64,000 nt of DNA from positions 1,024,001 to 1,088,000 of the forward strand of contig JBDRZU010000001.1 of the NCBI GenBank assembly GCA_039804105.1. Reading direction: 5' to 3'. The notes under the pieces are model-generated. The model saw nothing but the letters and a program-made list of their open reading frames with translations, had not been told where the DNA came from and searched no databases. Source of the DNA: a candidate division WOR-3 bacterium. Its GTDB lineage: Bacteria; Hydrothermota; 32-111. Numbering within the stretch: position 1 is the first letter of the stretch; every line of letters begins with the position of its first letter. The translations under genes were made by a program, and so were the position numbers. Positions 709 to 16,865 of this stretch are shown here, piece by piece.

Positions 709-1143
709 CTATTTAAATTTTAATATTCGTGCATCAAAAAACTCTATTAAACCATCTTCGGTATATTTATAATAATTTCTAATTTTGTATTTTTCCTTTT
801 TTTCTAAATTGTAATAATTTAAAGAAATGCCTCTTTCTTTTTCTTCATTCCAGAGGTAATATTCTTCATCAATAAAACCATCAAAACTAAAATTTTCAGG
901 AAAGGTTATTTTATCGATCTCAATTATTCTATAATTTATAAGGTCATTGGAAGTCCATAAATATATTTCTCTATCAGTGTTGAAAAATCTTGCCTCAATC
1001 AAATTATTATCATCGATTTTTAAATCATTAAATAAATTTTGATCGCTTAATCCTAAAACAACCTTTTCATATGAATATAAAATAAAAAACATTTCTTTTA
1101 AATTCAATTCTTTAAAAATTTCGTTTAATTTTTTATTTTCCAT
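709..1143 (-). CDS. csx19: Csx19 (type III-D small subunit, TIGR03984-like)
   Basis: 144 aa with LIEARFFNTDREI, EEYYLW and IRNYY..FFDARI motifs; lies between two RAMP genes. Confidence 0.8.
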   Translation of the reverse strand: MENKKLNEIFKELNLKEMFFILYSYEKVVLGLSDQNLFNDLKIDDNNLIEARFFNTDREIYLWTSNDLINYRIIEIDKITFPENFSFDGFIDEEYYLWNEEKERGISLNYYNLEKKEKYKIRNYYKYTEDGLIEFFDARILKFK

Positions 1144-1155
1144 AAAAAACTCCTT

Positions 1156-2451
1156 TTATCTAATTTTCATTAAATTTTCATAACCATTTTTTTCAAAATC
1201 TTTTATATATTTTTCTTTATCATTAACTAAAACTTTCGAAATTTTAAGTAAACCTCTACCCACATTAGTTTCACCACCTATTGCATAGATTCCATTATCT
1301 ATTTCTCTCAAAACTAACATCAGAAGTTCAATATATGAATTCATTAAAGATTCATCTTTTTCTTTTAAAAAAATTTTCAACTTTGTTTTACCATTAAAAC
1401 ATGGTTCATTACAAAACAAAGCACTTTCAATATTTCCTCCTGTAAATCTATCAATCCTGATCCTTGTGTTTGGGATCAATTTGCCGTTTTCTATAACACT
1501 TTCTTCGAAAACAATTTTTGATGGTTTGCTTGTTTTATCGCTTTCTTTAACATAGCCAAATAAATCGTTAATAACTTTTTCAGCATCTTTATTTAGTTCT
1601 TTCAAAACCTGATAACATGAACTTCTAAAAAAACCAGCCCAACTTGTTCCTGGGATAATTGGCCTTCCGTTACTTTGGATTTGTGTTGCATCAACATCTT
1701 CTTCAATTTTATACTCTCTGATCAAAATAGAGTAAGGAATATCAAAAAAAACTTCGATTTTACAAATGTCGCTTTTATCAAGATTAAAAATTTTATGATT
1801 CAAATCTTCGTATCGGATATTTTCCTTTATAGAATTCCATTGAAAATTAATCCACTCTTTGATATTTTTAGAAACATCAACCTTTTGAATTTTTTCATCT
1901 TGTAAAATTACTTTTCCTAATCCTCTATTTGTTTTCGCGCCAAAAGAAATTTCACCATTTTTTAAAGAAGAAATGATTATATAAATAATTTCTTCTATTT
2001 CTTTTTCCTTATATAAAATGTTTTCTCTTAGAACAACTTCTAACCTTAATAAAAATTTATTTGAAACATCAACAATTTCATAATCAAATTTACTTTTATC
2101 AATAGATGTTTTTGTTTCGTAATCAATTGATACTCCTTCCCTAACTTTATTTTTTTCTTTCTCACAGACATTTCCATCATAAAACTTGAAAATACTTTGA
2201 TTACCAACATCACCATTTTCATCGATTAAATTTCCAAAACAATAATCGATTAAATCATCTTTAATACAATTTTTCAAGAAAGATCTTATTTTGCCTGCAA
2301 TGGTTGTTGCTGGTACAAATATTTTGCCTTCTCCATCTCTAACAAAGTCAATATCAGTTAATTCGTCTTCCCCATTTCCAATTAATATAGGAGAAATTGC
2401 TTCCAAAATTCCCTTAATATAATAAATTTTACATATTTTGTTTTCTTTCAT
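1156..2451 (-). CDS. cas7: Cas7-Cas7 double RAMP (Csm3-like) of type III-D
   Basis: Two RAMP units: SPILIG...VPATTIAG...FGAKTNRGLG and IPGTSWAG...RIDRFTGG...IGGETNVGRG. Confidence 0.88.
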   Translation of the reverse strand: MKENKICKIYYIKGILEAISPILIGNGEDELTDIDFVRDGEGKIFVPATTIAGKIRSFLKNCIKDDLIDYCFGNLIDENGDVGNQSIFKFYDGNVCEKEKNKVREGVSIDYETKTSIDKSKFDYEIVDVSNKFLLRLEVVLRENILYKEKEIEEIIYIIISSLKNGEISFGAKTNRGLGKVILQDEKIQKVDVSKNIKEWINFQWNSIKENIRYEDLNHKIFNLDKSDICKIEVFFDIPYSILIREYKIEEDVDATQIQSNGRPIIPGTSWAGFFRSSCYQVLKELNKDAEKVINDLFGYVKESDKTSKPSKIVFEESVIENGKLIPNTRIRIDRFTGGNIESALFCNEPCFNGKTKLKIFLKEKDESLMNSYIELLMLVLREIDNGIYAIGGETNVGRGLLKISKVLVNDKEKYIKDFEKNGYENLMKIR

Positions 2452-2460
2452 TTTTGCTCC

Positions 2461-4560
2461 TTATTTTTTACTTTTGTAAATTAAAAGAGTAAACAAATTA
2501 CTAACATAAAATTTATAAAATTCTAACTTTTTCTCTTCAGTTAATTCACCCAATTCTTTAATTAAATTTTGAAATTCTTTGTTTTCAATAAAATTATTAA
2601 TATCTATTGTTATATTAGAACCTTGATTACTCATCCATAAATACGCTTTTAACTTTTCCAATTCTTTTACTCTACTTTTCCCCATTTTTTCCAACTTTGA
2701 TTTTAATTCAGATAAACTTTCCGATGTTTGGAAAATATTGTTTAATCTATATAAAAAACTTTTATTTATCTTAATTGGAGCATTATTTATTTTTTTCATA
2801 GCAGTTGAAATCAATATTTCTTTTAATTTTTCTTCAAATAAATATTTTTTTATTGCTTTAAATTCTGGGCATTCAACAGAAAATTCAGTATTGATATTTT
2901 TTTCAATATATTGTTTGTTTAACTTTTTATTTCCATGATAGTTTAAAATTATTTGTCCAAAACCTTCATTTGTCCTTTCTCCAAAACCTTTTAGTATATC
3001 TAATTTATTAATTTGAAAAGTTTTATTGTTTTTAATAATTATTTCACTACCTGCAGATATACATTCAATTTGTTGTTTCGGTAAACCCCACACACTTAAA
3101 AATCCTCCAACAAATTTTGTTTTAATAAAAGATTTTACAATAACTAAATCATTAAAATCAACTTTAAATCTTTCACTTAATTCTTTTTTTAAAATGTTTA
3201 AATCATTTGTAATATACCCAGTAGTAGGGTTTCTTAAAATTATATCACTTTTAAAAGTGAGCACTAAATTTGAATTTTTTTCTATTTGCTTAAGATTTTC
3301 AATTAGTTTGTTAAGTTTTATTTCTAAAATGTTTAAACTTCCATATTGAGAATTTTTGGACCTTCCTAAGTAAATAACTCCATTTTCATTAAGCAAATCA
3401 AGTAAAATTTTTAAATATTTATATTTACCAATTATTGTTCCAACAAACTCATTATCTTCTTTTAAACATTCATATTGAAAAAACTCTCCTTCTTCTTTTG
3501 ATGATTTTCCTAAAGATCTATCAACTGGTCTTTTGTGATGATAATTTATTTCTTTTTCTAAATTTTTTATATATAAATTTTCATTTTCAATAGATACCAA
3601 ATCTGAAACAGTTCCTTTCAAAATTTTATTATCATTCTCATTAAAGGTTAAATCAACAATATCATCAGAATCTTTTATCTTTTGTATCGATAATGGACAA
3701 GGGATGTATTCTCTATTATTTTCCTGAATGTAAAAGTTATTAAAAATAACTTCTTTTTTTAAAAATAGATTCGTAAAAAAATTGTCTTTTCCTTTTTTCT
3801 GTAAATATTTATTAGCCAAAAATCCTAAAATAAAACTACCTGGAATAAAATTTTCACTTTTTTCTTTTTTAATGAAGTTTGTATTGACTATTAAACCCTC
3901 TTTTGCTATCCCTCTTATACTAATCTCATAAAGATCTTCATCATTATATTTTGGATAATTTATTTGTAATTTAACTTCATTTTTAGATTCAATTTCTTTT
4001 ATCTCTTCAAGAAAAATTTCTCCAAAACCTCTATTTCTTTTAAGTCCCATAGATCTTGTAATTTTTAATAAATCATTTATAAAACTTTTATATTTCTCAT
4101 CAAAATCAATTTTAAAAACAAATTCTAAATTTTTCTTCAAAACTCTTGATGTTCTCAAAGAATTTTTTAAAGCTACTCCATTTTCATCTATTGAAGTTTG
4201 ATTTCTTAAATAAGTATAGTAAGAGATTATTCTTTCTTTATTAAAAAGAGTTTTATCTTTTTGACTTTTTATATTGTTTTTAATATTTTCATAGTTATTT
4301 ATATAAGCGTTTGATATTCTTAGATTACCAAAAACCTTATCACCACTTTTGCCAAACAAATAATCTATATCTTTTTTTTCAATTTTATAACCATTATCCA
4401 AAAGTTCCATAGCATTTTCTTTTAATAAACCTTTTATTCTCTTCGCTGGGATATAAGGAATTCCAAATTCATCATAAAAAACATCTGTATCTATTATTCC
4501 TGAAAGTCCTTGACCTGAATAAGGTATCGTATCTGATAATAATTTAATTTTTATAAACAT
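2461..4560 (-). CDS. csx10: Csx10-like RAMP fusion (Cas7-Cas5, with a probable helical Cas11-like C-terminus)
   Basis: GIPYIPAKRIKG...MGLKRNRGFG, IPGSFILG...LGRSKNSQYG, AGS...GFGERTNEGFG, then a helical tail; directly after cas10. Confidence 0.85.
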   Translation of the reverse strand: MFIKIKLLSDTIPYSGQGLSGIIDTDVFYDEFGIPYIPAKRIKGLLKENAMELLDNGYKIEKKDIDYLFGKSGDKVFGNLRISNAYINNYENIKNNIKSQKDKTLFNKERIISYYTYLRNQTSIDENGVALKNSLRTSRVLKKNLEFVFKIDFDEKYKSFINDLLKITRSMGLKRNRGFGEIFLEEIKEIESKNEVKLQINYPKYNDEDLYEISIRGIAKEGLIVNTNFIKKEKSENFIPGSFILGFLANKYLQKKGKDNFFTNLFLKKEVIFNNFYIQENNREYIPCPLSIQKIKDSDDIVDLTFNENDNKILKGTVSDLVSIENENLYIKNLEKEINYHHKRPVDRSLGKSSKEEGEFFQYECLKEDNEFVGTIIGKYKYLKILLDLLNENGVIYLGRSKNSQYGSLNILEIKLNKLIENLKQIEKNSNLVLTFKSDIILRNPTTGYITNDLNILKKELSERFKVDFNDLVIVKSFIKTKFVGGFLSVWGLPKQQIECISAGSEIIIKNNKTFQINKLDILKGFGERTNEGFGQIILNYHGNKKLNKQYIEKNINTEFSVECPEFKAIKKYLFEEKLKEILISTAMKKINNAPIKINKSFLYRLNNIFQTSESLSELKSKLEKMGKSRVKELEKLKAYLWMSNQGSNITIDINNFIENKEFQNLIKELGELTEEKKLEFYKFYVSNLFTLLIYKSKK

Positions 4561-4575
4561 AATTTATCTCCTTAT

Positions 4576-6087
4576 TTAAATATTTTCCAAAAATTCCATA
4601 ATTTCGATTGCATCATAGTATGGCGTTATTTTTTCTTCAGTAAAAATTTTATTTGAATTATCATAAGTTGGTAAACAAAAATTTCTACTATTTAAAAAGT
4701 TTATGTAAAATTCAACATCTTCTTTTGATTTTATAAGATAGGAACGCAACTTTTTTATTTTATTTTTTGGTTTATTATTAAAATCGTTAACTAATTTTTT
4801 TAAATTATTAAAATTAAATTTTTCCAATATTTTTTCACCACCTATATAATATGGCCTCCAAAGCAAATTATACGAATCATAGCCTTCTTTAGGTTCTGGT
4901 TTTTGCATATTTGGAACAGAATAAATTTTATTTCTTAATGTTTTAAGATCCGTTGTTATTCCTGAAAAAACAATATGAAAATCTATCCAACTACCTATAT
5001 AATTTAATTTATAATAACTTGAAATTCTTTTTCCTTTTTCCTTTGCACTTTTACATAATTCTTCTGCCAATTCATATCCTCTATAAAATGGAAAATGGGC
5101 TTTTACCAAAGCAACACCAGCAGATGCGGTTAAAGTTAATTCTTTACCATCAATTTTTATCCTTTCTTGTTCAATATTTTTAAGAATATCTTCCGCAATA
5201 CTTAAGCCATATTTACCTTCACAAATTAGGGTAATATCATCCCCTCCAAAAATTATAGGTCTAATTTTTATTTTATTATTGGCTATAAAATGCTTTTTAT
5301 TTTTCATTTTTTTTAAAGTTTCTGAAAACGCTTTTTCATAAATTTTATTTATATCAAATGATATTTTTTTAATTAATCGAATAGAATCTTTAAAATCTTT
5401 TGAATTTTGTAATATTCCTTTAATAAAATTACCCATACTATTTCCATCAATATGAATATAGGCAAGGTGTCCATCTTCTTTACCTCTGAATTTTTCTATA
5501 TTTTTTTCAAAAGTCAAACCATCAAGAACTTCTTTAAATTTTTCTTCAAAAATATTAATTTCTTCTTCTCTCCTCATTAAATATGCTGGTTTTGAAATAT
5601 AACCATCTTCATCTTTATAATAAGCGGGTAGATTATCCAAAAAACTTTCTCTCGTTATTGATATTCCAAGAAGTGATGTCTTTTTAGGTAACTTATTTTT
5701 TCTTATATTCGCTTGTTTTATTAACTCATCAAAATCTTTTTGATAATCCTGTAAATTAGTTTCTTTATATGAAACTGCGAAAGAAACAAGACCATAAGTA
5801 TAATCATAAAAATTTTTAGACAGTTTTTTAGTAAAATTTATTGCGCTTTCCTTATCATTGAACATTAAAAGTAAATTTCCTCCTCCAGAAAATATTATTT
5901 TGCCTTCTTTTGAATCTGATTCAAATCCTTTGTCAAGATCAATTTCTGTCACCCCCAGACTTTTTAAATTTTCATTAGAAAATAATTTTGAAACGATGGA
6001 AGATGCTCCAATATTTTCACGCATTTTTTTTGAAAGAAAAATAAAATTCTGAATCCCTGTCATATCATAATAGGCCAATGTCTTCAT
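4576..6087 (-). CDS. cas10: Cas10 (Palm cyclase intact, no N-terminal HD nuclease domain)
   Basis: DMTGIQNFIF, FSGGGN (palm1), HIDGNSMG and IFGGDDIT (palm2), ASAGVA, PFYRGYELAEELC. Only 503 aa, starting directly at palm1. Confidence 0.93.
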   Translation of the reverse strand: MKTLAYYDMTGIQNFIFLSKKMRENIGASSIVSKLFSNENLKSLGVTEIDLDKGFESDSKEGKIIFSGGGNLLLMFNDKESAINFTKKLSKNFYDYTYGLVSFAVSYKETNLQDYQKDFDELIKQANIRKNKLPKKTSLLGISITRESFLDNLPAYYKDEDGYISKPAYLMRREEEINIFEEKFKEVLDGLTFEKNIEKFRGKEDGHLAYIHIDGNSMGNFIKGILQNSKDFKDSIRLIKKISFDINKIYEKAFSETLKKMKNKKHFIANNKIKIRPIIFGGDDITLICEGKYGLSIAEDILKNIEQERIKIDGKELTLTASAGVALVKAHFPFYRGYELAEELCKSAKEKGKRISSYYKLNYIGSWIDFHIVFSGITTDLKTLRNKIYSVPNMQKPEPKEGYDSYNLLWRPYYIGGEKILEKFNFNNLKKLVNDFNNKPKNKIKKLRSYLIKSKEDVEFYINFLNSRNFCLPTYDNSNKIFTEEKITPYYDAIEIMEFLENI

Positions 6088-6096
6088 CTCTCCTCC

Positions 6097-8472
6097 TTAT
6101 TCATAAATCTTTTTTCCAATCAATTCTATTAACAGATCATTCATTCCTGTTTTAGTATATATATTCAATCTCTGTTTACCACTTTTGGTGACTATCCAGT
6201 AAGAAACACCCTTTTCACCTATCATCTTTTCAAATTCAAGATGGTTTTCATCAACTTTACATTTTCTCATCTCATCGAGGATAAATTCCGTAATCAGGTT
6301 TCTTCCAATTCTGTATATTCTTTTAATAATTTCTCTGATATCTTTATCTGTTATATCATTGATTCCACTGAAACCATCGCCCCATAAAGTTGAATGGCTT
6401 TTTTTCTCTCCAATTCTTATCGGAACTTCTTCCTGATCAATTATATAACTCTTATAATAATCAAAAATCATCTTACCAACAGGAGAATCTGTAAAACTTT
6501 TTATGTTTTTATCGTTGTTAAGTAATATTCTAAAATTTTGTGGCAAATTATTTTTAAATAAATTTTTTGCTCTTTCATAGTCAGTTTCATTTTTTATTTC
6601 CTGTATCAATTCATAATACTTCTCATAAAGTTTGAAATCAAACTCAATTGGAATTTCGGGAAGTTTTACAATAGAATTAAAATCCTCAAAAACATAGTAA
6701 ACTGGAACCTTGTATAGTACTGCAAGTATTGTTGCATAAGCGATCTCTGCTTTGAATCCACCGGTTGCAAGTATTTCAATGTTTCTTCCAGTATTATCGA
6801 TTATGTTCGTAACTTTTTTGATAAAATTTATCAGCCCTCTTGTTTCAAATTCATTTGCATCATATTTTAATCCCTCAATTTTTACCCTTTCAACATTTGC
6901 TTTATATTTTTCAAGAATATACTTTTCAAGTAATTTACACGACTTCTCTCCCTCTTCAGTATCACTTTCTATTAAGTAAAACCAGGAGTTTTTATTTACT
7001 TCTTTTTTTAACTTATGGATTGTATTTGTTTCTGCTGAGACCTTTTCTGGAGGATTTGAAAGCATAAAATCCAAAATATGTTCGAAAGTTTCCTCTTTAC
7101 CAGGACACATCTTTCTAAAATTTCCAAACACCGCAGTTCCAACTGTTACAATATAACTTTTCATATCTTTTCTCCTTAAAAGTTTTCCTTTTTTAAAAAT
7201 CAGTTCTTTCCCATTCTCCCCAATTATCGTTCTAACTTCCTTTTTCAATTTTTGTTTCACATTTTTAATCGCATCCAAATCTCCATGAACAAGCAAAACA
7301 TTTTTCGGAGTAGTTCTGTTGACATAAGATATTATACCTTTCAAACTTGAATGGAGTGACAAAGGAAAGTGTTCAACATTGACTTTTTTCACATACTCCT
7401 TCTCATCTATATATATAACTCCATTTTTTTCAGTTTTTAAAAGTTCATATCCTAAAGTTCCTTTTGCAAGATAACCTGTGAAAAGAACAGAGGATGTCTC
7501 ATCCTCAATAAGATGTTTTAAAATTTGATATGAAGGAGTATGAGGATTCAGCATTCCACTTGAAGCAATTATTATCGATTTTCGAGGTATAGAATCAATT
7601 TTTTCAATATATTTAGATTTTAACGATTTAGAATGACATTCTCTATAAATCGGGGTTATTTTATTTGCCATTCCAACCGTATATATCTTTTTAGTTAACA
7701 ATTCTTTACTTCTTCTTTCAAAAAGAAATAGTATTTCCTGTGTTTTTCCAAGTGCAAAAGCAGGTATCAAAACAATTCCGTTTTTTTCTAATGTTTTATT
7801 TATCGATTCTATAAATCTACTTTCATATTTTTCTCTCATCTTTTCTTCATATTCTGAGTTTCCATTTGTTGTTTCTGTTATCATAATATCAACATTTTTT
7901 TTATAATAGTTTAATTTTCCTGTCATAATATTGTTCGAAACAGAAAAATCACCTGTATAAATCAAAGAGTTCCCTTTGTTATCAAAAATATGTATTCCAC
8001 AACTCCCAATAACATGTCCTGATTTAAAAAGTTTAAAATTTATATTAGAATTCAATTGATTAACCTTGTTCAGTTCAATACATTCTATCTTTCTGTCAAG
8101 TTCAAAAAGATTTAATTTATTAAAATAAATTTCATAGAACCTTTTATTATAGTCATTCATCATTAAAACCTTTGCACTATCAAGAAGCATGATTTTATAG
8201 ATTTCTTTCGAATTCTGACTCATCACAATTCTTTTCACATCAAAAATTTTTTCTATAACAGGCAATGAACCAAGATGATCAAGATGGGGATGAGATACAA
8301 ATAAGAGATCAATTTTTTCATCTTCAATTTTATGAAGTAAAGGTAATTTGTTATATCCAGATTTATTTGGATCCATACCACAATCAAGCATAATTTTTAT
8401 TCCTTCCCAATCAACATAATAAGAGTTTGCCCCAATCTCCTGTGCCCCGCCAAGCGGCATAATTTTTATCAA
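6097..8472 (-). CDS. MBL/beta-CASP nuclease fused to an APE2256/Crn1-like CARF domain, wHTH-like segment and an unassigned C-terminal domain
   Basis: LGGAQEIGAN, LDCG, SHPHLDHLG (HxHxDH), GHVIG, YTGD, ETT, SLHSS, LVHGD. From about aa 437: IVTVGTAV, SAETNTI, SDTEEG, ATGGFKAE, YYVFE, typical of APE2256/SSO1393 CARF. Confidence 0.85.
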   Translation of the reverse strand: MIKIMPLGGAQEIGANSYYVDWEGIKIMLDCGMDPNKSGYNKLPLLHKIEDEKIDLLFVSHPHLDHLGSLPVIEKIFDVKRIVMSQNSKEIYKIMLLDSAKVLMMNDYNKRFYEIYFNKLNLFELDRKIECIELNKVNQLNSNINFKLFKSGHVIGSCGIHIFDNKGNSLIYTGDFSVSNNIMTGKLNYYKKNVDIMITETTNGNSEYEEKMREKYESRFIESINKTLEKNGIVLIPAFALGKTQEILFLFERRSKELLTKKIYTVGMANKITPIYRECHSKSLKSKYIEKIDSIPRKSIIIASSGMLNPHTPSYQILKHLIEDETSSVLFTGYLAKGTLGYELLKTEKNGVIYIDEKEYVKKVNVEHFPLSLHSSLKGIISYVNRTTPKNVLLVHGDLDAIKNVKQKLKKEVRTIIGENGKELIFKKGKLLRRKDMKSYIVTVGTAVFGNFRKMCPGKEETFEHILDFMLSNPPEKVSAETNTIHKLKKEVNKNSWFYLIESDTEEGEKSCKLLEKYILEKYKANVERVKIEGLKYDANEFETRGLINFIKKVTNIIDNTGRNIEILATGGFKAEIAYATILAVLYKVPVYYVFEDFNSIVKLPEIPIEFDFKLYEKYYELIQEIKNETDYERAKNLFKNNLPQNFRILLNNDKNIKSFTDSPVGKMIFDYYKSYIIDQEEVPIRIGEKKSHSTLWGDGFSGINDITDKDIREIIKRIYRIGRNLITEFILDEMRKCKVDENHLEFEKMIGEKGVSYWIVTKSGKQRLNIYTKTGMNDLLIELIGKKIYE

Positions 8473-9875
8473 CGTAACCCCTCTATTGTTATTTTTAATA
8501 ATTCAAAAGATTTTTCTAATTCTTCAAAAGACATGTTTAGGTTATATTTTTTTAAGTAATTGAGTATCAAAAATTTTGCTAATTTTTTTATATCTTCTTG
8601 CTCTTCTTTATTAATAATTTTATCTCCATGAGCCATATTTGAACAGTTTCGTATCTTTGAACAATTAAAAATCCATTTAACATCTATATTTCTTTCTTTA
8701 CTCAAAATATCGTTATTCAAAAGTTTTAATATAAAAACATCATCCATTAGTGCTGTTTTAGGTGGTAAACCAGTTCCTTTATATTCTTCACCAAAAACTT
8801 TTCCAGCAATTTCTTTAAACTTTCCAAAATCTATTTTTATCTTTGAATAATCAGGCTTAGAAGTATCAAATTCATAATCTTTTTTTAAAACTGATTGAAA
8901 AATCATTTCTACTGTTCGATATAACAAAAATGATGAAATTTCATACCGTTCTTTTTTTTCATAAAAAATTCCTAAAAAATAATGATTGAAAATTTTATAT
9001 TCCTCAGTTTCTTTAATGTTTTCCAGTAAATTTACATTAATTTCTAATTTACTTCTTAGATTATTATCTAATTCTTGAAATTTGTTTAATATTTGTTCAT
9101 ATAATTTTTTTGATTCTTCAAAATTAAAATCAATCCAGTTTTTTTGTGCTTGAGATAATAATTTTATTAATTCAATATTATATTGTTTTCTAAAAGTAGT
9201 CTTTTCTTCATATTCTTTTATCAATTTACATGCTTCATTGTAATTGCCTGAATTAAAATAATTTAAAACATCCAACAAAACCTTATCCCCTGAGAGATAA
9301 AAAGGATTATAAATAATTTTTAAAAATTCTGAAGAAAAAAAAGGTTTATTACTTTCTCTTACATATCTTCTATAATCTATATAACATGCGTCTATATTAA
9401 AAATAGCACTGATCATTCCAGATATAGCGCTCATTGTTTTTTTCCCACCTGTTAAATCAATTAAAATTATTTTTTCTTTATTTGAAAGGTATATGTCTAC
9501 AATTTTGTTATAAAAATTAGTTATATCTCTTTCATCTACTTCATGAAATGATATTTTTTCCTTTTCATATTCAATTTTTTCAAGAATAATATCTCTATAT
9601 TTTGAACTTTCCTTAGTAACAATTAAATAAATTGCTTCCTTCGGTTTTACTAATGAACCAGAAAGAATTGAAGTTGCAGGAGAAAGTCCAACTAAAGAAA
9701 TCAAAATATCATATTCTTTTTTTACCTCTTTTTTATTTTCGTCAATAAATTTTTTTAGATATAAAGGTAAAAACTCATTAAAATAAAATCTATCTTTTTC
9801 TTTAAAATCTTTTATTTCATTATATTTTTTGTTCATTTCGTCCATTAATTTTTCAAAATTTTTATCCACCTTCAC
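8469..9875 (-). CDS. CARF-HEPN ancillary ribonuclease (Csm6/Csx1-like, TIGR02710-like)
   Basis: SLVGLSP and IDLTGGKKTMSA CARF motifs; C-terminal RNCSNMAHG HEPN-type motif. The original start is probably GTG at 9875; an in-frame alternative start at 9944 arises from a 69-bp duplication/insertion. Confidence 0.85.
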   Translation of the reverse strand: MKVDKNFEKLMDEMNKKYNEIKDFKEKDRFYFNEFLPLYLKKFIDENKKEVKKEYDILISLVGLSPATSILSGSLVKPKEAIYLIVTKESSKYRDIILEKIEYEKEKISFHEVDERDITNFYNKIVDIYLSNKEKIILIDLTGGKKTMSAISGMISAIFNIDACYIDYRRYVRESNKPFFSSEFLKIIYNPFYLSGDKVLLDVLNYFNSGNYNEACKLIKEYEEKTTFRKQYNIELIKLLSQAQKNWIDFNFEESKKLYEQILNKFQELDNNLRSKLEINVNLLENIKETEEYKIFNHYFLGIFYEKKERYEISSFLLYRTVEMIFQSVLKKDYEFDTSKPDYSKIKIDFGKFKEIAGKVFGEEYKGTGLPPKTALMDDVFILKLLNNDILSKERNIDVKWIFNCSKIRNCSNMAHGDKIINKEEQEDIKKLAKFLILNYLKKYNLNMSFEELEKSFELLKITIEGLR

Positions 9876-9969
9876 TCCTTTTTTTCTATCATACCAAAAC
9901 GTAAGCAAGCGCGTAATAAGCGATTTCCCAATCAACACCTTCACTCCTTTTTTTCTATCATACCAAAAC
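9867..9969. repeat. 34-bp perfect direct repeat flanking a 35-bp unique insert
   Basis: CACCTTCACTCCTTTTTTTCTATCATACCAAAAC at 9867-9900 and 9936-9969; insert at 9901-9935. Confidence 0.95.
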
Positions 9970-10681
9970 CCATTGAATTTTTTTCTCCTAAACCAGAATC
10001 GTAAGCAATATTTATAAGGTCTGTATCTCCTTCAAGAGTTATTTCATCAAAAATTCCTTTCAATTTAATATCTTTGAATTTTATTAATTTTGTATATGTA
10101 TATTTTTTAGAAGCATAGACATTTACTCCTTTACCGGTATATTTTTCACCAAAAAGAATCTCATATTTTTTTGCAAGATTATTATTCACTCTAATATTAA
10201 ACTCATCATCTATTTTCGTAAGATATTCAACTCTTCCATTTTCATAAAGTTTTGACACAACTATTGGTGAATTGCATATAAATTTATCTTTTCCTTTAAA
10301 TTTTGGGGTTCCTCTTATTTTTATTTCCTGTATTTTAAAATACTCATGTTTTATCTCTAAATAGCCCAATTCATAAAAACCTAAAGCGATTATTTCCAAT
10401 AATCTATTCAATGGAGATGATATAAACCATTTAAAACAACCATTTGACAGTTTCAAGTCAAGATCTTTCACTTTGAAAATATTACCTTTTAAAAATGAAT
10501 AGGTAAAAAGTTTGATATTTTTGTGTTCGTTTTCTTCATAAAAACCATCATCATGTATTTTTTTTGCAAGATCTTTATCGACAACATTTATTGATTTATA
10601 AATCGCAGAAGTCAGATAATAATTGTAGTTAAGTGGAATAGACCTTAACTGGTCATTACAACAAATAATTTCTATTCTCAA
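9941..10681 (-). CDS. cas6: CRISPR-associated endoribonuclease Cas6
   Basis: IPLNYNY, HDDG, KLFTYS, SPIVVS and the C-terminal glycine-rich loop GLGEKNSMGFGMI. Confidence 0.95.
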   Translation of the reverse strand: MRIEIICCNDQLRSIPLNYNYYLTSAIYKSINVVDKDLAKKIHDDGFYEENEHKNIKLFTYSFLKGNIFKVKDLDLKLSNGCFKWFISSPLNRLLEIIALGFYELGYLEIKHEYFKIQEIKIRGTPKFKGKDKFICNSPIVVSKLYENGRVEYLTKIDDEFNIRVNNNLAKKYEILFGEKYTGKGVNVYASKKYTYTKLIKFKDIKLKGIFDEITLEGDTDLINIAYDSGLGEKNSMGFGMIEKKE

Positions 10682-10692
10682 AATTTCCCCTC

Positions 10693-12435
10693 TTATATTA
10701 AGTTTATTAAATCGCTCAATTCCCTTATTTTTTCTATATTTTTTGCATTCAAAAATTTTATGTATCTACAGAAAGTTTGTTTAAAAAGTTTCAGTCCTTT
10801 TAAATTTTTTATTATATCTTCCATAACATCTTCATCTTTGTATTTGATATAATATGTTAACAATCCTCTTATTCCAAAAAGCAAATAATCTTCTTTTTCG
10901 AATTCTTTCATTTTTTTAAAAAAGTAATAATAAAGTTTTTTCGACATCTCTTGATCAGTTTCAAGAAATGAAAATGCATAATACTCAATTGCAAGATAAT
11001 ACATGTAATAGAATCTTGTGTCCTTAACTAATTCAAAGAAATCTTCCCACAAAAACTTCACTTCTTCTGATTTTCCAAGATGTGCATTCAATCTTATCTT
11101 CTCAAAATGGATAAAAACTTTCTGAATATTTTCAGGAGTTGCTTTTTTAAGATAATTTTCAGCAAGACCAATATATTTTTTAGAATTATTATAATTCCCT
11201 TTTAAAGTATTCAATTTTGCAAGATAACAGCAAACTCTTGATACATCAGAAGTAAGATACTTTTTACAAAACTCAAGATTATTTAAAAGATATTTTTCTG
11301 CTTTTTTAAAATCCTTATTGTGTATTAAGTATTGAGATAAAGTTCCATAGGTTGATATAGAAAGGTGTTTTCCTGTATATTTTTTTTCTTCCAAGTTCAA
11401 TTTCAAAAGTTTTAAGCCCTCTTTAAATCTGTAAATGTCTTTTAAAAATACTGCATAAACATTGTTAAATTCGATAGAAATATTATTATACTCAAATAAT
11501 TTTTCTTTTATAAGTTCATTTTTTGTATCATTTGCTCTTTTAAAATAATTTTCAGCAGTTAAAATATCTCCCGATTGATTATAATGTAATGCCAATCTTG
11601 ATAGAACAAGAAAGTAATAATTCTTTGACTTTATATCCTCTCTATTTTTAAGATATGCCTCAAGATTATTGTAAATTGGAAGATAGGAATTTTTATCACT
11701 CTTCAACAGATAATTTTCAGCAATATTGAACATTCTTTCAACACCAGAGAGAAATCTTTTATCGACTGTTTCAGTGTAATCTCCAAAGACATTTTTTATT
11801 ACTTCTTTAAAATTTTTCAATTTTTTATCAGGATAAACAAAGATTCCCTCTTTTATTTCCTTATCAAAACAATATTTTTTTTCTTCTATAAAATCAACTT
11901 CAAGCAGATTACCTTCAAAATCGAGTGCTCCAGTAAAACAAAATTTATCTTCCACATATCTATTCGTTACTGCCAAATATAAAAGCACTGCTATTGGAAG
12001 TTCGAGCGATTCACAATCAAGAGAAAAAATCTTTTCTATCTCATCAAAATTTTCAAGTATTATTTTGTTAGGATTCAAATCAATGATTATCTCTTTTTGG
12101 GCAAAATATTTTTCAACAACCACAACTGCTTTTCTTATAACATTTGCTATGTTTTCCTTATAAATGATTGTTTCATTTTCAGAAAAATTGACTTTTAACG
12201 GAATAAGAACCGGATACTTTTGATTTTTATCTATTATTACCACAGGAGCAAAAACATTATATTCCAAATGTGGATTTAAAATATCTACACTTTTACTCAA
12301 ATTTTTCAAAATTGTCTTCATATCATATGTTTTCACTTCATTTAAAAGTTTATCTATTATTAATTTTGAATGACTATAATTTTGAAATTTCAAAAGTAAA
12401 TTCAAATATTCAAATGACCTTAAATCTGATCTCAA
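10693..12435 (-). CDS. Lon-type (S16-like) Ser-Lys protease domain fused to a C-terminal TPR-like helical repeat region
   Basis: DCE-S143-LELPIAV...FCFTGALDFEGNLLEVDFIEE-K186 aligns by eye with Lon DGPSAG...AMTGEI...GxVxPIGGxxEK, with the same 43-residue Ser-Lys spacing. About aa 230-580 is helical repeats (LALHYNQSGDILTAENYFKRA; LAKLNTLKGNYNNSKKYIGLA). No AAA+ or SAVED domain visible. Confidence 0.75.
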   Translation of the reverse strand: MRSDLRSFEYLNLLLKFQNYSHSKLIIDKLLNEVKTYDMKTILKNLSKSVDILNPHLEYNVFAPVVIIDKNQKYPVLIPLKVNFSENETIIYKENIANVIRKAVVVVEKYFAQKEIIIDLNPNKIILENFDEIEKIFSLDCESLELPIAVLLYLAVTNRYVEDKFCFTGALDFEGNLLEVDFIEEKKYCFDKEIKEGIFVYPDKKLKNFKEVIKNVFGDYTETVDKRFLSGVERMFNIAENYLLKSDKNSYLPIYNNLEAYLKNREDIKSKNYYFLVLSRLALHYNQSGDILTAENYFKRANDTKNELIKEKLFEYNNISIEFNNVYAVFLKDIYRFKEGLKLLKLNLEEKKYTGKHLSISTYGTLSQYLIHNKDFKKAEKYLLNNLEFCKKYLTSDVSRVCCYLAKLNTLKGNYNNSKKYIGLAENYLKKATPENIQKVFIHFEKIRLNAHLGKSEEVKFLWEDFFELVKDTRFYYMYYLAIEYYAFSFLETDQEMSKKLYYYFFKKMKEFEKEDYLLFGIRGLLTYYIKYKDEDVMEDIIKNLKGLKLFKQTFCRYIKFLNAKNIEKIRELSDLINLI

Positions 12436-13252
12436 TCATCTCCCCACTTTTTAAAGATTTTACTTTGATAATATTTTCTTTTTCAAAAGATGGAGTCAAA
12501 ATAAGTTCTTTATCTTCTAATTTTTTATTATCTATTAAAAATTTACCTTTTATACTTTTACATATAATTTTTTTGTCTTCAAACTTCAGAAACAAAATAT
12601 TTCCATCATTAAACTTTATTTCTCTCATTTTTTGTAATTTTTCTATATTCTTTATAATTTCGTCTTTTTCTGGTTGTTTCTTTTTTGCTGCCAAAACAGG
12701 TTTTAAAAAATCAACAGGTATTTCCCAGACAAAAACCTTATCTTTTTTAAATTCTTCTATGTAAGTTTTCAAATGGATATATGGAGAAATAAATTTGAAT
12801 TCATCTTCTTTTATTATTTTAAAAACATCATTTAAAATTATATTCAAATTCAAATCTTTCAAATTTGTATCTTCAATATATTTTGAAAAAACGAACGCCT
12901 CTTTCGGCAAAGAAATTTGCACTGGCGCAAAATATATTTTTTGTTTTAATTTTAGGGAGTCATAACACAACTCAGTTTTTCCTTCATATTCTGGGATAAA
13001 TATAACCTCATTATCTAAAATTTCCTTTACAAAAACAAATTTTTCAGGAACTGATTTTAGAATTGGGTTATATAGTGAATAAACTTTTTGGGGTGAGATT
13101 TCAGGAGGACTCTTTCCAATTAAAAATTTTTCAAGCCAATCGTTTAAAGTTTTTAAATACAATTTTTCTTTCTTTTTATCAAATAAAATCTTTTCACCTG
13201 ACTTAAAAAGTATATATTTTTCAAAATCATTAAATTCAATCTGATTTTTCAT
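12410..13252 (-). CDS. Hypothetical protein, putative CalpT-like anti-sigma factor / protease substrate
   Basis: 280 aa, between a sigma-like gene and the Lon-TPR gene (overlaps the latter). N-terminal segment reminiscent of a PemK/MazF-like fold; VLAA at aa 186-189 precedes a ~90-aa beta-rich domain. Confidence 0.5.
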   Translation of the reverse strand: MKNQIEFNDFEKYILFKSGEKILFDKKKEKLYLKTLNDWLEKFLIGKSPPEISPQKVYSLYNPILKSVPEKFVFVKEILDNEVIFIPEYEGKTELCYDSLKLKQKIYFAPVQISLPKEAFVFSKYIEDTNLKDLNLNIILNDVFKIIKEDEFKFISPYIHLKTYIEEFKKDKVFVWEIPVDFLKPVLAAKKKQPEKDEIIKNIEKLQKMREIKFNDGNILFLKFEDKKIICKSIKGKFLIDNKKLEDKELILTPSFEKENIIKVKSLKSGEMIEIRFKVI

Positions 13253-13313
13253 AAACTCCTCAATCTTTCTTTCAATAAATATAAACTAAAAAATTTTCAA
13301 AAAACAAAAATTT

Positions 13314-14243
13314 TTATTTATTTTTGTAATTTTTTAAAATATTTTTTAAATCATCACAAGAGAGAGAATTTTTTACAACAAATTCTTCTATTTTTTTTTC
13401 AATCTTTTTTACATAAAACTGTATATTCTGTGGAGAAGTTTTTAATTCCTCTGCAATCTTTACAATTGTTATATCTTGTAAAAATTTAGATATAATACTT
13501 TTTTCATAATCGTTAAACAATGATTCAAATTTTTCATAATAAAAATTCCAATCCATTTCTTCTGTTTTTAATACAATTTCGTTTTCTCTTATACTACCAT
13601 TACCTTGTTCTTGTTCATCATCAATGATATTCACAACATCATTAAAAGCATATTTCAATTCATCCATTACTTTTTTTATCGATATTTTTCCATTTTCTCT
13701 GTATATCAAATAATCAAGATATTCTTGTAAATCTTTTGTTTTAAATAGTTGCTTGTTTCCTCTTAATTTTGGCTTTTGCGGAATTCTATTCTTTTCGAAA
13801 TTTCTAATCTTATTTTTATTGATCAAAATTTCTTGATCAAATTTAATATCTTTTTTAATTCCATAAAATTCTATTAAAATTTTCTTTATAGTAAAAAAAA
13901 GTTTTTTTTCTGGCTTTTTAGAAGTAATATCTTCGACATAATTTTCAAACATTCTGTTGATTAATTTTTTAAAACCTGTTTCATCAGAAAGATGACCTTT
14001 TTCAATTTTTCCCTTAAAGTAATTTAGATTGTTGTATATTTTTTTAGAAATAAAATTATATATCTCTGATTTAGCAAGATCTTCATTTTCTTTATTATAT
14101 ATTTCAAAAATGATGTAGTATTCGGGATTATGGTAAAACTTTTGTAAAAGATATTCTGTTAAAATTGTTATAAATTGTTCATTTAATTTTTTTTTCTGGG
14201 GGGTTTCTTTATTTTCAATTATTTTTTTTAATAATTCAAACAT
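13314..14243 (-). CDS. ECF-like sigma-70 family factor (CalpS-like position)
   Basis: Region-2-like DLAKSEIYNF...GFKKLINRMFENYVEDI and region-4 HTH FNDYEKSII...ITIVKIAEELKTSPQNIQFYVKKIEKKI. Start moved to ATG 14243 because the ORF-track TTG at 14282 is the -35 box. Confidence 0.65.
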   Translation of the reverse strand: MFELLKKIIENKETPQKKKLNEQFITILTEYLLQKFYHNPEYYIIFEIYNKENEDLAKSEIYNFISKKIYNNLNYFKGKIEKGHLSDETGFKKLINRMFENYVEDITSKKPEKKLFFTIKKILIEFYGIKKDIKFDQEILINKNKIRNFEKNRIPQKPKLRGNKQLFKTKDLQEYLDYLIYRENGKISIKKVMDELKYAFNDVVNIIDDEQEQGNGSIRENEIVLKTEEMDWNFYYEKFESLFNDYEKSIISKFLQDITIVKIAEELKTSPQNIQFYVKKIEKKIEEFVVKNSLSCDDLKNILKNYKNK

Positions 14244-14253
14244 AAATATAAAA

Positions 14254-14282
14254 AATATAAAGTATTTTTTTACTATTGTCAA
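14254..14282 (-). promoter_or_regulatory. Sigma70-type promoter for the sigma/anti-sigma/Lon-cas operon
   Basis: TTGACA (14282-14277), N17, TATATT (14259-14254); ATG about 10 nt downstream, so near-leaderless. Confidence 0.6.
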
Positions 14283-14314
14283 TATATTTTATTTTTTCGA
14301 GAAAAACAATCAAG

Positions 14315-14893
14315 GTTTCCATACCAAAAATGGTGCGATTAAGACCGAGAACGATCCGTTCTCGTCGATTTATAGAATCTTAAAGTTTCCATACCAAAAA
14401 TGGTGCGATTAAGACAAAAAACAATGAAAATTAAAAAAATCATTTCACTTATGTTTCCATACCAAAAATGGTGCGATTAAGACATTTTGAACAACATCGA
14501 CGAAGTTATTTACATCAACCCGTTTCCATACCAAAAATGGTGCGATTAAGACCTAAGATAGGAAGATAGGAAGAGAACAAAAGGAGGCAAAATGTGTTTC
14601 CATACCAAAAATGGTGCGATTAAGACACAACCCCTCTGCTGAGGGCTTCATCACATCTTCTCGAAAGTTTCCATACCAAAAATGGTGCGATTAAGACATT
14701 GATGGATTTATTACTGATTTTTTATGGTCTGATGAAGTTTCCATACCAAAAATGGTGCGATTAAGACGGGGTGAGGAGTTTAGGTACTCCTCTGACTACG
14801 ATAAAGGATTTTGTTTCCATACCAAAAATGGTGCGATTAAGACATAAAATAAAATAAAATAAAAAAATAGGCACCACCGGGTGCGATTAAGAC
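14315..14893 (-). CRISPR. CRISPR array: 8 identical 31-bp repeats plus one half repeat; 7 full spacers (37-45 bp) and a 36-bp leader-proximal segment
   Basis: The + strand repeat GTTTCCATACCAAAAATGGTGCGATTAAGAC starts at 14315, 14385, 14453, 14522, 14596, 14667, 14737 and 14813; GGTGCGATTAAGAC only at 14880-14893. The minus-strand form ends in ATGGAAAC (typical 3' handle). Confidence 0.97.
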
Positions 14894-14913
14894 AGGATCA
14901 TAAATTTAATTTT

Positions 14914-14941
14914 ATTATATACTTATTTTAAAATTTGTCAA
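14914..14941 (-). promoter_or_regulatory. Consensus sigma70 promoter in the CRISPR leader
   Basis: TTGACA (14941-14936), N16, TATAAT (14919-14914), pointing into the array. Confidence 0.75.
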
Positions 14942-14944
14942 GAT

Positions 14945-14994
14945 TTTTCTGTCGATCGGTGGTCGTGCAAAAAACCCGGGGGATCGACAGAAAA
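14945..14994. promoter_or_regulatory. 13-bp perfect inverted repeat in the CRISPR leader
   Basis: TTTTCTGTCGATC (14945-14957), 24-nt loop, GATCGACAGAAAA (14982-14994); GC-rich island in an AT-rich leader. Confidence 0.7.
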
Positions 14995-15044
14995 TTTTCG
15001 CTGTAATATTTACTTTGATATTATAATAAATATAATATCACATT

Positions 15045-15890
15045 ATGATTTATACTTTTTTTGCTGCTTTTTTAATTGGAATTGCAGATGGTTGTTCAAA
15101 GTATGCTATAAGTAAATTGAAAACAGGAAGATTGATGTTCATTTCTGGAACAACTCAAATTTTACTAACCTTTATTTTCTTTAAAATCATGAATGGTAAA
15201 CTTCCTGAGGTATTAACAATTTTTAAACTCTCTTTTATTCAGATTCTTTCAACAATTGCATATCTTTCTTATGTTATAGCACTTTACTATGGAAATGTAT
15301 CAATTATAACCGCTATAATCTCTTCTTCATCAATTTTTACATTTTTACTTGGAACTCTTGTTTTAAAAGAAAAAATAAGTTTTTTTCAGTTTCTCGGAAT
15401 CATTCTGGTTATTGTAGGGAGTATTGGAATTTCGTATGAAAAAAAATCAAACACTCAAAATAACAAAAAAATTCTCTGGCTTACATTAACTGTAATCGCA
15501 ACTATACTCTGGGGAATCTGGGCATTTTTGATCAAAATAATGGTTTCTCATATTAAACCCTTTGAACTCTCTTTTTTTAATTCAACATTCTCTTTTGTTT
15601 TTCTTTTACCATATATGTTTTTTTCTATAAAAACAGAAAAAAATGTTCGAATCGATATTTTTTCAGTTTTTGTTTCAATTCTTTTTGCGGTATTCGTTTT
15701 CACAGGACTTGTTTCTTTTTATTATTCTGCTTCAAGAATACCTGTCTCAATAGCGTTTCCAATATTTTGTTCGTCTCCTCTTGTAACTGCAATATTTTCT
15801 GCAATATTTTTTAAAGAAAAATTACAACTACATCAATATTTTTCTCTGTTTATTATAATTTTTAGTTTATTTTTAATTAATCTGACTTGA
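15045..15890 (+). CDS. EamA/DMT family transporter
   Basis: About 10 TM helices in two repeats with LKEKIS and FKEKL motifs. Confidence 0.85.
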   Translation: MIYTFFAAFLIGIADGCSKYAISKLKTGRLMFISGTTQILLTFIFFKIMNGKLPEVLTIFKLSFIQILSTIAYLSYVIALYYGNVSIITAIISSSSIFTFLLGTLVLKEKISFFQFLGIILVIVGSIGISYEKKSNTQNNKKILWLTLTVIATILWGIWAFLIKIMVSHIKPFELSFFNSTFSFVFLLPYMFFSIKTEKNVRIDIFSVFVSILFAVFVFTGLVSFYYSASRIPVSIAFPIFCSSPLVTAIFSAIFFKEKLQLHQYFSLFIIIFSLFLINLT

Positions 15891-15926
15891 ATTGAATTAA
15901 GTAAAAATTTCTGATATAATCAACCA

Positions 15927-16865
15927 ATGCAGATTTTTATATCTACATTCAGTTCAGTTCTTGGATTGCTTGTAATTGGACTATTAGGATTTTTTCTTGT
16001 ATCAAAAAAATTTCTTGATGAAAAAATTTTTTCCTTCCTTTCAACATTATCTCTTGAAATATCTTTGCCTTGTATGATTTTTTCAGATATTATAACAAAG
16101 TTTGATCCAGTAAGACAAGAAAAATGGTTTTTTTATCCACTTTATTGGGTTGCAACTACTACTTTTATTACTTTTATTTCTTTTCTTGGAAAATTTTTAT
16201 CACCAGAAGAAAACAGAAAAGAGTTTTTTGTTTCTTTGTTGTTTCAAAATGGAATATTTTTCCCTCTTGCAATTTTTTCAACAGTTGATTCTTTTATTGG
16301 ATATAAGATAGATCTTTTTCTATTTATGATGTTTTATGCTGCATTCTTGTTTAATACCTTTTCATTTTTTTACTCAGGGAAAATTGAAAAATTAAATATT
16401 TCAAAAACATTTCATCCAGTTCTTATAGCAACTTTAATCGCATTGATCTTAAAACTTTCATCTTTATCAAATTTCATTCCTGATTTTTTTATAGAAGCTT
16501 TGAAAATGGTTGGATCTATGTCTGTTCCGCTACTAATTCTAATTCTTGGAGGAAACATTTATGTTGACTTAAAAAGATCAAAAAAATTTTATGTAAAAAC
16601 AATTCTATCTTTTGTTCTTTTGAAAAATTTTGTTTTTCCCTTTTTAGGAATTTTGATCCTCTATTTCTTAAAATTGCCTCAAAACATTTCCACAATCATA
16701 TTGCTTGAACTTGCAGTTCCACCGATAACTGCATTACCAATCCTTGTTGAAAGAAACAAAGGAAACAGCAGAGTTGCCAATCAACTTATTCTCTTTTCTT
16801 TTTTAGTTTCACCTATATCAATACCTTTTTCTTTATTTTTGCTTTATAAATTTCTTGGATTTTAA
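15927..16865 (+). CDS. AEC (auxin efflux carrier/malate permease) family transporter
   Basis: SLPCMIF, FQNGIFFPL, VPLLILILG and LAVPP motifs; about 10 TM. Confidence 0.8.
   Translation: MQIFISTFSSVLGLLVIGLLGFFLVSKKFLDEKIFSFLSTLSLEISLPCMIFSDIITKFDPVRQEKWFFYPLYWVATTTFITFISFLGKFLSPEENRKEFFVSLLFQNGIFFPLAIFSTVDSFIGYKIDLFLFMMFYAAFLFNTFSFFYSGKIEKLNISKTFHPVLIATLIALILKLSSLSNFIPDFFIEALKMVGSMSVPLLILILGGNIYVDLKRSKKFYVKTILSFVLLKNFVFPFLGILILYFLKLPQNISTIILLELAVPPITALPILVERNKGNSRVANQLILFSFLVSPISIPFSLFLLYKFLGF

Follow-up and report, generated by a model that had tools for sequence, protein, structure and literature searches.

The genome of a candidate division WOR-3 bacterium (GTDB lineage Bacteria; Hydrothermota; 32-111; GenBank assembly GCA_039804105.1) may encode a protease-controlled sigma factor switch beside type III CRISPR genes. 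The stretch analyzed here, hereafter the window, comprises 64,000 nucleotides (contig JBDRZU010000001.1, positions 1,024,001 to 1,088,000 of the forward strand). The central component is a 280 amino acid (aa) protein, P0001, which we predict to be an anti-sigma factor and protease substrate similar to CalpT. Its neighbors are a protein resembling extracytoplasmic function (ECF) sigma factors and a protease with a Lon-type domain and tetratricopeptide repeats (TPR), here called Lon-TPR. A CalpT-like role for P0001 is fairly probable by analogy with the CalpL-CalpT-CalpS system; placing the cut between A189 and K190 is tentative and, on balance, doubtful. For the complete reading, a cut at this site followed by ClpXP-type removal of the larger fragment through a newly exposed C-terminal Leu-Ala-Ala (LAA), we estimate a probability of roughly 0.2.

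In the proposed mechanism, the MazF-like N-terminal part of P0001 would keep the neighboring ECF-like sigma factor inactive, and the small C-terminal beta domain would dock P0001 to the co-translated Lon-TPR. Upon firing of the adjacent type III CRISPR system, the Lon domain (candidate dyad S143/K186) would cut within the inter-domain stretch on the C-terminal side of A189, the conserved Ala in P-[VI]-[LF]-x-A|K-x-K, releasing products of 22.5 and 10.8 kDa. The new end (...KPVLAA-COOH) would mimic the end of the host ssrA tag (...FALAA) and could be taken by ClpXP, perhaps also by other AAA+ proteases, freeing the sigma factor. The motif, the architecture and gene order, the conserved dyad and the ClpXP and ssrA features of the host come from the sequences and models; binding of the sigma factor, cleavage at this position and the subsequent degradation we infer by analogy with CalpL/CalpT/CalpS and RseA.

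Candidate cleavage site of P0001 and host degradation machinery

The features of the P0001 gene are listed below. Alignment A2 is the 8-row family alignment in which the site was read, VIA-align is the fold comparison, and pLDDT (predicted local distance difference test) scores are those of the AlphaFold2 model made from an 8-row alignment.

12410..13252 (-): P0001 gene, encoding the 280-aa CalpT-like putative anti-sigma factor and protease substrate (open reading frame and translation)
12827..13105 (-): residues 50-142, MazF/CcdB/Kid-like beta barrel (VIA-align fold match; pLDDT 56-85)
12632..12745 (-): residues 170-207, inter-domain stretch holding the motif (pLDDT below 50)
12686..12697 (-): codons of V186-L187-A188-A189, proposed P4 to P1 positions and would-be C-terminal LAA (translation, alignment A2)
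12683..12685 (-): codon of K190, proposed P1' position (Lys after Ala in 7/8 rows of A2)
12413..12631 (-): residues 208-280, small beta-sandwich in the position of CalpT10 (pLDDT about 65-81)

Residues 184-195 of P0001 read KPVLAAKKKQPE, and A189 is encoded by the GCA codon 12688-12686. Both had been given by an earlier model-made reading of the letters (the sequence-only reading), and translation of 12410-13252 (-) confirms them. A hydrophobic residue followed by two alanines (L187-A188-A189) stands immediately N-terminal to K190, and would form a degron-like end only given the predicted cut after A189.

CalpL cuts CalpT of Ca. Cloacimonas acidaminovorans within 202-LAAA, between A204 and A205, into parts of 24.3 and 10.9 kDa (bioRxiv 10.1101/2024.05.08.593097). 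The Sulfurihydrogenibium system is the same in outline, with a CalpT of 33 kDa processed to CalpT23 (PMC11417357). These two sources agree with the CalpT fragments of about 23 and 10 kDa given in the sequence-only reading. Intact P0001 is 33.36 kDa, and its parts are computed at 22.54 kDa (residues 1-189) and 10.84 kDa (residues 190-280, 91 aa), which bears out the expectation of fragments similar in size to those of CalpT (22.5 and 10.8 kDa vs the published 24.3 and 10.9 kDa). Lon peptidases favor Leu, Ala, Phe and Val at P1 (PMC11986505). The A189|K190 bond appears to be the best single scissile candidate because the stretch has no conserved Ala other than A189, because Ala at P1 fits both Lon and CalpL, and because the fragment sizes fit.

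The frequency of the motif was estimated from a crude set of 1361 non-overlapping open reading frames (ORFs) of at least 150 aa from the same genome, assembled with no gene call. Ala accounts for 3.5% of residues in this set and for 4/280 in P0001. [LV]AA occurs at 3.0e-4 per residue, giving 0.085 expected occurrences per 280 aa and 0.012 for a 38-residue linker; at least one occurrence is found in 8.1% of the 345 ORFs sized 230-330 aa. When P0001 was shuffled (n=200,000), the motif appeared anywhere in 0.7% of shuffles and inside 170-207 in 0.08%. Chance presence of [LV]AA in the P0001 linker is unlikely by this estimate, which is post hoc, the motif having first been chosen by eye.

The P0001 family consists of eight sequences, comprising two lineages and one distant protein without gene context. 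Their residues at the site in A2 are:

P0001 and P0003: PVLAA-KKKQP
P0002: PVLVA-KKKQP
P0005, L017, L018 and L019: PIFTA-KLKRT
P0006: LAS-AKQQT, in a gappy part of the row, with Ala-Lys one column to the right

Ala-Lys is kept in seven of the eight, and those seven represent two lineages only. Seven rows contain 4-8 Ala per roughly 280 aa, and P0006 contains 15; Ala is scarce in the family, and its retention before Lys therefore carries some weight. All three members of the window's sub-lineage have a tag-like ending (LAA or LVA), and LVA is a fast ssrA-type tag (PMC11003136). Judged from these rows, a strong tag (LAA or LVA) is confined to the sub-lineage and does not extend to the family as a whole. 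What the family seems to require is that the new end be Ala, with no need for Ala-Ala.

In the P0001 model, helices (9-44) are followed by a beta barrel (56-128) and by an all-beta domain with strands at 210-278. The motif-bearing stretch of low confidence (170-207) sits between two folded parts; its pLDDT below 50 may come from the shallow alignment and not from true disorder. A further low-confidence stretch is at 135-154. Chains with the MazF, CcdB, Kid or a related toxin fold make up 12 of the 14 best rows for residues 50-142 in a VIA-align search of 48,161 chains, with 85-91 residues aligned to MazF, CcdB and Kid chains. The best matches are 8zws_A and 5wyg_A (Z 8.1 over 85-86 aligned residues, root-mean-square deviation about 3 A). 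For residues 205-280 the matches are to sandwiches of a generic FHA- or Ig-like kind (Z 5-7). The beta-rich C-terminal part that had been placed after a 189-aa N-terminal part holds at the level of the model, with strands only from 210 to 278.

No family match to P0001 was found by sequence in Pfam, PADLOC, NCBIfam or PDB (PDB to an expectation (E) value of 10). Also absent from all eight family members, at E up to 10, are DUF2080 (PF09853), the second part of CalpT, and any PemK/MazF sequence match. ESM Atlas returned nothing usable for P0001 (best feature score 0.77, structural template modeling score about 0.3). At the fold level the C-terminal domain appears to be only a generic beta sandwich, which may still be kin to DUF2080 in structure.

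The host appears to encode the machinery that the degradation step would need. The clpX gene (514.7 bits, above the cut-off) adjoins clpP, and in an alignment to the 424-residue chain 8e91_A the predicted protein keeps the equivalents of Y153, V154, T199, V202, R228 and H230 (6/6 identical). These six residues are critical for ssrA binding, and ClpX recognizes ssrA mainly through its C-terminal Ala-Ala (PMC7652416), in agreement with the role earlier ascribed to LAA as the ClpX-recognized end of the tag. The host transfer-messenger RNA (tmRNA) gene (158 bits, Rfam-supported), read in frame, ends in ...NNFALAA before the stop. As far as sequence can tell, this host is able to read an LAA end; given a cut after A189, the new end would probably be read by ClpXP.

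A C-terminal Ala is found in 10 of the 1361 ORFs of the crude set, against 48 expected from composition, and is about five-fold depleted. ORFs ending in Ala-Ala number zero, against 1.7 expected. The depletion fits avoidance of such ends; other causes are possible.

Two details concern the annotation of these host genes. The tmRNA gene is on the minus strand (G000:C2:378168-378504, 1504-1837 of the extracted locus L001), and its resume codon seems to have been miscalled by ARAGORN. The ARAGORN tag peptide (32 residues ending FLFK) was rejected, and the in-frame reading nearer the 5' part of the gene, which gives ...NNFALAA-stop, was kept. Also rejected was a missing host ClpX: the zf-C4_ClpX model found nothing in this genome, and the full ClpX model did. 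The ClpX gene (G000:C1:796545-797726, 1477-2658 of L009, minus strand) encodes an N-terminal CxxC...CxxC with no zf-C4_ClpX match, which suggests a divergent zinc-binding domain.

The protease, the sigma-like protein and the CRISPR locus

The presumed partners of P0001 and the candidate catalytic residues are listed first.

10693..12435 (-): Lon-TPR, 580 aa, Lon-type protease domain plus TPR repeats (weak Lon and TPR profile matches)
12007..12009 (-): codon of Lon-TPR S143, candidate catalytic Ser (pairs with the DGDS Ser in the 1xhk alignment)
11878..11880 (-): codon of Lon-TPR K186, candidate catalytic Lys (pairs with the NEK-motif Lys in the 1xhk alignment)
13314..14282 (-): ECF-sigma-like protein, 322-aa ORF, in databases from M14 (309 aa) (fold matches)

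Lon-TPR matches 1xhk, the Lon peptidase domain of M. jannaschii (E 0.0079), PF13541 (E 5e-4), TPR_12 (E 6e-4) and LonB (E 0.034), and every sequence score to Lon families lies below the curated cut-offs. In the alignment to 1xhk, S143 and K186 coincide with its catalytic Ser and Lys, respectively. Both residues (S143 in LDCES, K186 in IEEKK) are invariant in 8/8 family members. The family profile also matches canonical Lon ORFs, over positions 130-212. A CARF or SAVED domain was not found in Lon-TPR with Pfam, PADLOC or NCBIfam, and Lon-TPR has no sequence match to the CalpL chains in PDB. The cluster representative P0007 is listed as 100% identical to Lon-TPR and differs from it at two or more residues (e.g. 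L171F, N256H); alignment A5 was therefore built with the window's own Lon-TPR translation.

The P0001 and Lon-TPR genes share a 26-nt overlap, and an identical 26-nt overlap occurs in a same-genus locus (L017). Complex prediction with full-length Lon-TPR and P0001, each with its own alignment, scored 0.21 and 0.00, where the mark is 0.32, and gave neither a verdict nor contacts. A 164-aa ORF at 12270-12764 (+), antisense to the junction of these two genes, is probably spurious; it is of low complexity and overlaps two conserved genes.

Literature searches for a Lon-TPR fusion in CRISPR loci found no paper, and the Lon and TPR passages of PMC12669027, PMC11229360, PMC6546367 and PMC10910872 do not mention one. 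As a separate observation, the TPR repeats in the C-terminal half of Lon-TPR recur (E 3e-9 to 4e-6) in ORFs of roughly 1160 aa that four genomes of the genus retain. These are L038 (G000:C1:76651-77154), L027, L029 and L039, and Pfam gives only generic TPR families in the part that was fetched.

The upstream neighbor of P0001 is ECF-sigma-like as judged from its model (pLDDT 74). Residues 1-118 match sigma region 2 (Z 6.5-6.9, including SigC 2o7g at Z 6.6 and sigma-E 2mao at Z 6.5), residues 228-296 match region 4 (Z 8.4-8.8; CnrH, SigW, SigL, SigD and SigK), and the whole ECF sigma L (6dv9_F) is matched at Z 9.0. Z values in this range are, by the tool's own warning, common among helical proteins, and the assignment takes its weight from the consistency of the hit names, not from the scores. 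Matches by sequence are weak, with TIGR02937 (sigma70-ECF) at E 0.0077, below the cut-off, and GerE at E 0.007.

Relatives of P0001 are few. A set of 5.8 billion proteins, searched at near lengths only, contains three in addition to P0001 (two at 83% identity and a 182-aa fragment), and a set of 1.84 billion proteins contains three representatives (P0002 at 83%, P0005 at 36% and P0006 at 32% identity). With the search confined to near lengths, fused or split forms may exist. The genome scan added one locus, L017, in the metagenome-assembled genome TA06 bacterium 32_111, and the metagenome scan added two (L018 and L019). In 271 genomes of the phylum, the P0001 profile found the host genome and one other of the same genus (G001), whose locus is identical to L017, plus a marginal match in G045 (E 0.009). 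The Lon-TPR profile was genuine only in the same two genomes; 11 others were reached through TPR repeats or canonical Lon. Canonical CalpT (DUF2080) was sought in these 271 genomes, and only small unrelated ORFs (59 and 71 aa) were found, in two genomes, with none in the host genome itself.

The order sigma-like, P0001-like, Lon-TPR, Cas6 is present in all four loci with gene context (the window, L017, L018 and L019). Identities between the window and L017 are 36-38% for P0001, 48-49% for Lon-TPR and 31-32% for the sigma-like protein. In L017 (equal to G001:C13, positions 4936-16039), which includes a Cas6b (E 4.6e-56), the block is flanked by an array of 26 repeats on one side and, on the other, by a type III-A module with an 812-aa Cas10 carrying an HD domain, then Csm2, Csm3 and Csm4. 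The arrays beside the block in L017 and in the window belong to one repeat family. The block is next to a type III-D module in the window and a type III-A module in L017, and is therefore linked to the array and Cas6 and not to a single effector subtype.

Every gene between 2 and 14282 of the window is on the minus strand. The remainder of the CRISPR locus consists of:

709-1143 (-): Csx19 of the type III-D module
1156-2451 (-): double Cas7 of the type III-D module
2461-4560 (-): Cas7-Cas5 fusion of the type III-D module
4576-6087 (-): 503-aa Cas10 of the type III-D module, with GGDD at 281
6097-8472 (-): ancillary protein of the MBL/beta-CASP-CARF type (Pfam)
8469-9944 (-): Csm6-like CARF-HEPN protein (Pfam), GTG start at 9944
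9941..10681 (-): cas6 (Pfam Cas6, E 3.7e-24), last gene of the conserved block
14312..14853 (no strand): CRISPR array (at least 8 repeats) immediately upstream of the gene for the sigma-like protein

The locus in all likelihood makes cyclic oligoadenylates, because its Cas10 has the GGDD motif and two of its proteins have CARF domains. The MBL/beta-CASP-CARF protein is a 791-aa fusion of Lactamase_B, Beta-Casp, RMMBL and CARF (Cas_APE2256, E 1.6e-29) domains with about 185 further C-terminal residues, an ancillary effector of rarer build. The junction of cas6 and the Csm6-like gene is straddled by an exact 34-nt direct duplicate (9867-9900 and 9936-9969, 69 nt apart). One copy supplies the Cas6 C terminus together with a ribosome-binding site and start, and the second is contained in the Csm6-like ORF, where it is read in a different frame.

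Points against the reading and alternative explanations

Several results weigh against a cut after A189 followed by degradation through LAA. Conservation of (L/V)AA at the domain boundary, which the sequence-only reading had proposed as a check, held in part: the terminal Ala and the next Lys are kept in 7/8 family members, whereas Ala-Ala is found in only two. (L/V)AA is present in 2/8, LVA in 1/8, FTA in 4/8 and LAS/AK in 1/8. Even the conservation of Ala-Lys amounts to two or three independent observations. Identity between the lineages at the site is 9/23, which does not exceed that of the full-length proteins (36-38%), and the site does not stand out as being under special constraint. Changes of the penultimate Ala raise the Michaelis constant (KM) for ClpXP (PMC7652416), and FTA would therefore be a weak ClpX tag at best. 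The P0001 model is of middling confidence (best mean pLDDT 62.7, with the other four models at 43-46), and the MazF match at Z 8.1 is at a level that VIA-align describes as common among top matches. The structure models draw on 6-8 aligned rows. No sequence similarity is detectable between P0001 and CalpT or DUF2080, or between Lon-TPR and CalpL, which leaves fold, size and gene order as the basis of the analogy.

It is quite possible that VLAA is a lineage-specific accident, with the cut elsewhere (in 135-154, or further along 170-207), or that P0001 is an adaptor or regulator and no substrate. Relatives at 83% identity differ between LAA and LVA, the stretch at 135-154 offers a second low-confidence region, and Lon also cuts after Leu, Phe and Val (PMC11986505), which are common here; the missing CalpT homology of P0001, the choice of the motif by eye and the post hoc chance estimate point the same way. 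A cut in 135-154 would not, however, yield CalpT-like parts of 23 and 10 kDa. The retention of a rare residue (4-8 Ala per 280) before Lys across lineages 36-38% identical, and the conserved overlap of the P0001 gene with the protease gene, also speak against this alternative. Alternatively, Lon-TPR could cut at Ala|Lys with LAA incidental to the outcome, the sigma factor being freed by the cut itself, by loss of docking or by degradation through proteases that can do without an ssrA-like end (FtsH, canonical Lon or ClpAP) or through tail-independent unfolding. We regard this as unlikely. The family pattern agrees with it, with x-Ala|Lys in 7/8 and Ala-Ala in 2/8, as do the TA06-like lineage, which retains the whole module with an FTA ending, and an LVA-tagged reporter in Salmonella that is degraded even without ClpXP (PMC11003136). 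What argues for a role of the tail is that the cut of canonical CalpT did not by itself release CalpS and that the terminal Ala was needed (bioRxiv 10.1101/2024.05.08.593097), that the P0001 ending matches the ssrA end of its own host, and that C-terminal Ala is depleted there (10/1361 vs 48 expected).

A different outcome would follow if the MazF-like N-terminal domain were an active ribonuclease toxin that either the C-terminal domain of P0001 or the sigma-like protein restrains until cleavage by Lon-TPR unleashes it. The result would be growth arrest via RNA cleavage, with no transcription switch. The best fold matches are indeed to MazF, Kid and CcdB toxins, and the locus already has RNA-degrading effectors (the Csm6-like CARF-HEPN and MBL/beta-CASP-CARF proteins). 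We nevertheless consider a toxin very unlikely, given that none of the eight family members has a PemK/MazF sequence match at E up to 10, that the sigma-like partner is conserved next to P0001, and that canonical CalpT, with the same fold, acts as an anti-sigma factor (bioRxiv 10.1101/2024.05.08.593097).

The interpretation of A189 as the start of a degron step is plausible and reasonably extends a mechanism already published, although the incomplete conservation weakens it. If correct, the cut-then-degrade route via an Ala-ended tail would not be peculiar to canonical CalpT or membrane anti-sigma factors, and the same logic would recur in a sequence-unrelated CRISPR protease switch that lacks SAVED. 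A189/K190 and a variant with AA changed to DD would then provide a precise and cheap handle on the action of Lon-TPR and its trigger. The more novel matter is the SAVED-less switch itself, in which a Lon plus TPR protease with no known nucleotide sensor would be coupled to type III CRISPR. The broadest reading has three joint parts: the sigma-like, P0001, Lon-TPR and Cas6 block would be a new protease arm of type III immunity without a CARF or SAVED sensor; TPR would be a novel receiver of the CRISPR alarm, through a nucleotide signal or a shared protein partner; and a substrate unrelated to CalpT in sequence would have arrived at the same logic of a cut after Ala and removal of the MazF-like fragment by way of its exposed end. 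We judge these three together rather unlikely.

Comparison with known systems

The closest analogue is CalpL-CalpT-CalpS, likewise a three-gene set by a type III locus with a Lon Ser/Lys protease, a roughly 33-kDa protein that joins a MazF fold to a small C-terminal domain, plus a sigma factor that is ECF-like. CalpT is built from MazF and DUF2080 (bioRxiv 10.1101/2024.05.08.593097). Its Ala-rich linker is cut into parts of about 24 and 11 kDa with an LAA end; for P0001 we predict 22.5 and 10.8 kDa, also with an LAA end. CalpL has a cA4-binding SAVED domain where Lon-TPR carries TPR repeats. The P1' residue is Ala in CalpT and Lys in P0001, and Ala-Ala is not kept across the P0001 family. The CalpT of Sulfurihydrogenibium is likewise cut after an Ala. 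The exposed PEDTLQLAA is the C-degron of CalpT: A204D blocks degradation, and fusions to green fluorescent protein are destabilized (bioRxiv 10.1101/2024.05.08.593097). The degron step, which the sequence-only reading had treated as new, is thus not a new principle and has already been published for CalpT and RseA.

The authors of that study liken the CalpT degron to RseA, with its VAA end, and ClpXP (bioRxiv 10.1101/2024.05.08.593097). RseA with sigma-E in E. coli and RsdA with sigma-D in mycobacteria follow a similar course, in that a cut of the anti-sigma factor exposes a VAA read by ClpXP and frees an ECF sigma factor (bioRxiv 10.1101/2024.05.08.593097, bioRxiv 10.1101/491043). Those anti-sigma factors are membrane-anchored, of the ZAS or RseA type, and are cut by site-1 and site-2 membrane proteases, whereas P0001 is soluble with a predicted MazF fold and its presumed cutter is a cytoplasmic Lon-type protease.

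Type III-E Craspase is also similar in some of its described features: a TPR-fused protease (TPR-CHAT, Csx29) in a type III locus, and a substrate (Csx30) tied to a sigma factor. Its protease is caspase-like (CHAT) and its TPR docks on a single effector, gRAMP, whereas Lon-TPR is found beside both III-D and III-A. Craspase-like docking of the TPR on one effector was downgraded, given that the block is beside III-D here and III-A in G001.

The predicted P0001 end resembles the ssrA tag and its LVA, AAV and ASV variants in having a C-terminal L-A-A (L-V-A in P0002) with a free carboxylate. The P0001 motif is internal, unlike the tag, and needs a prior cut. The mechanism proposed for P0001 is an extrapolation: the published CalpT mechanism applied to an analogue that is unrelated in sequence and has no SAVED domain.

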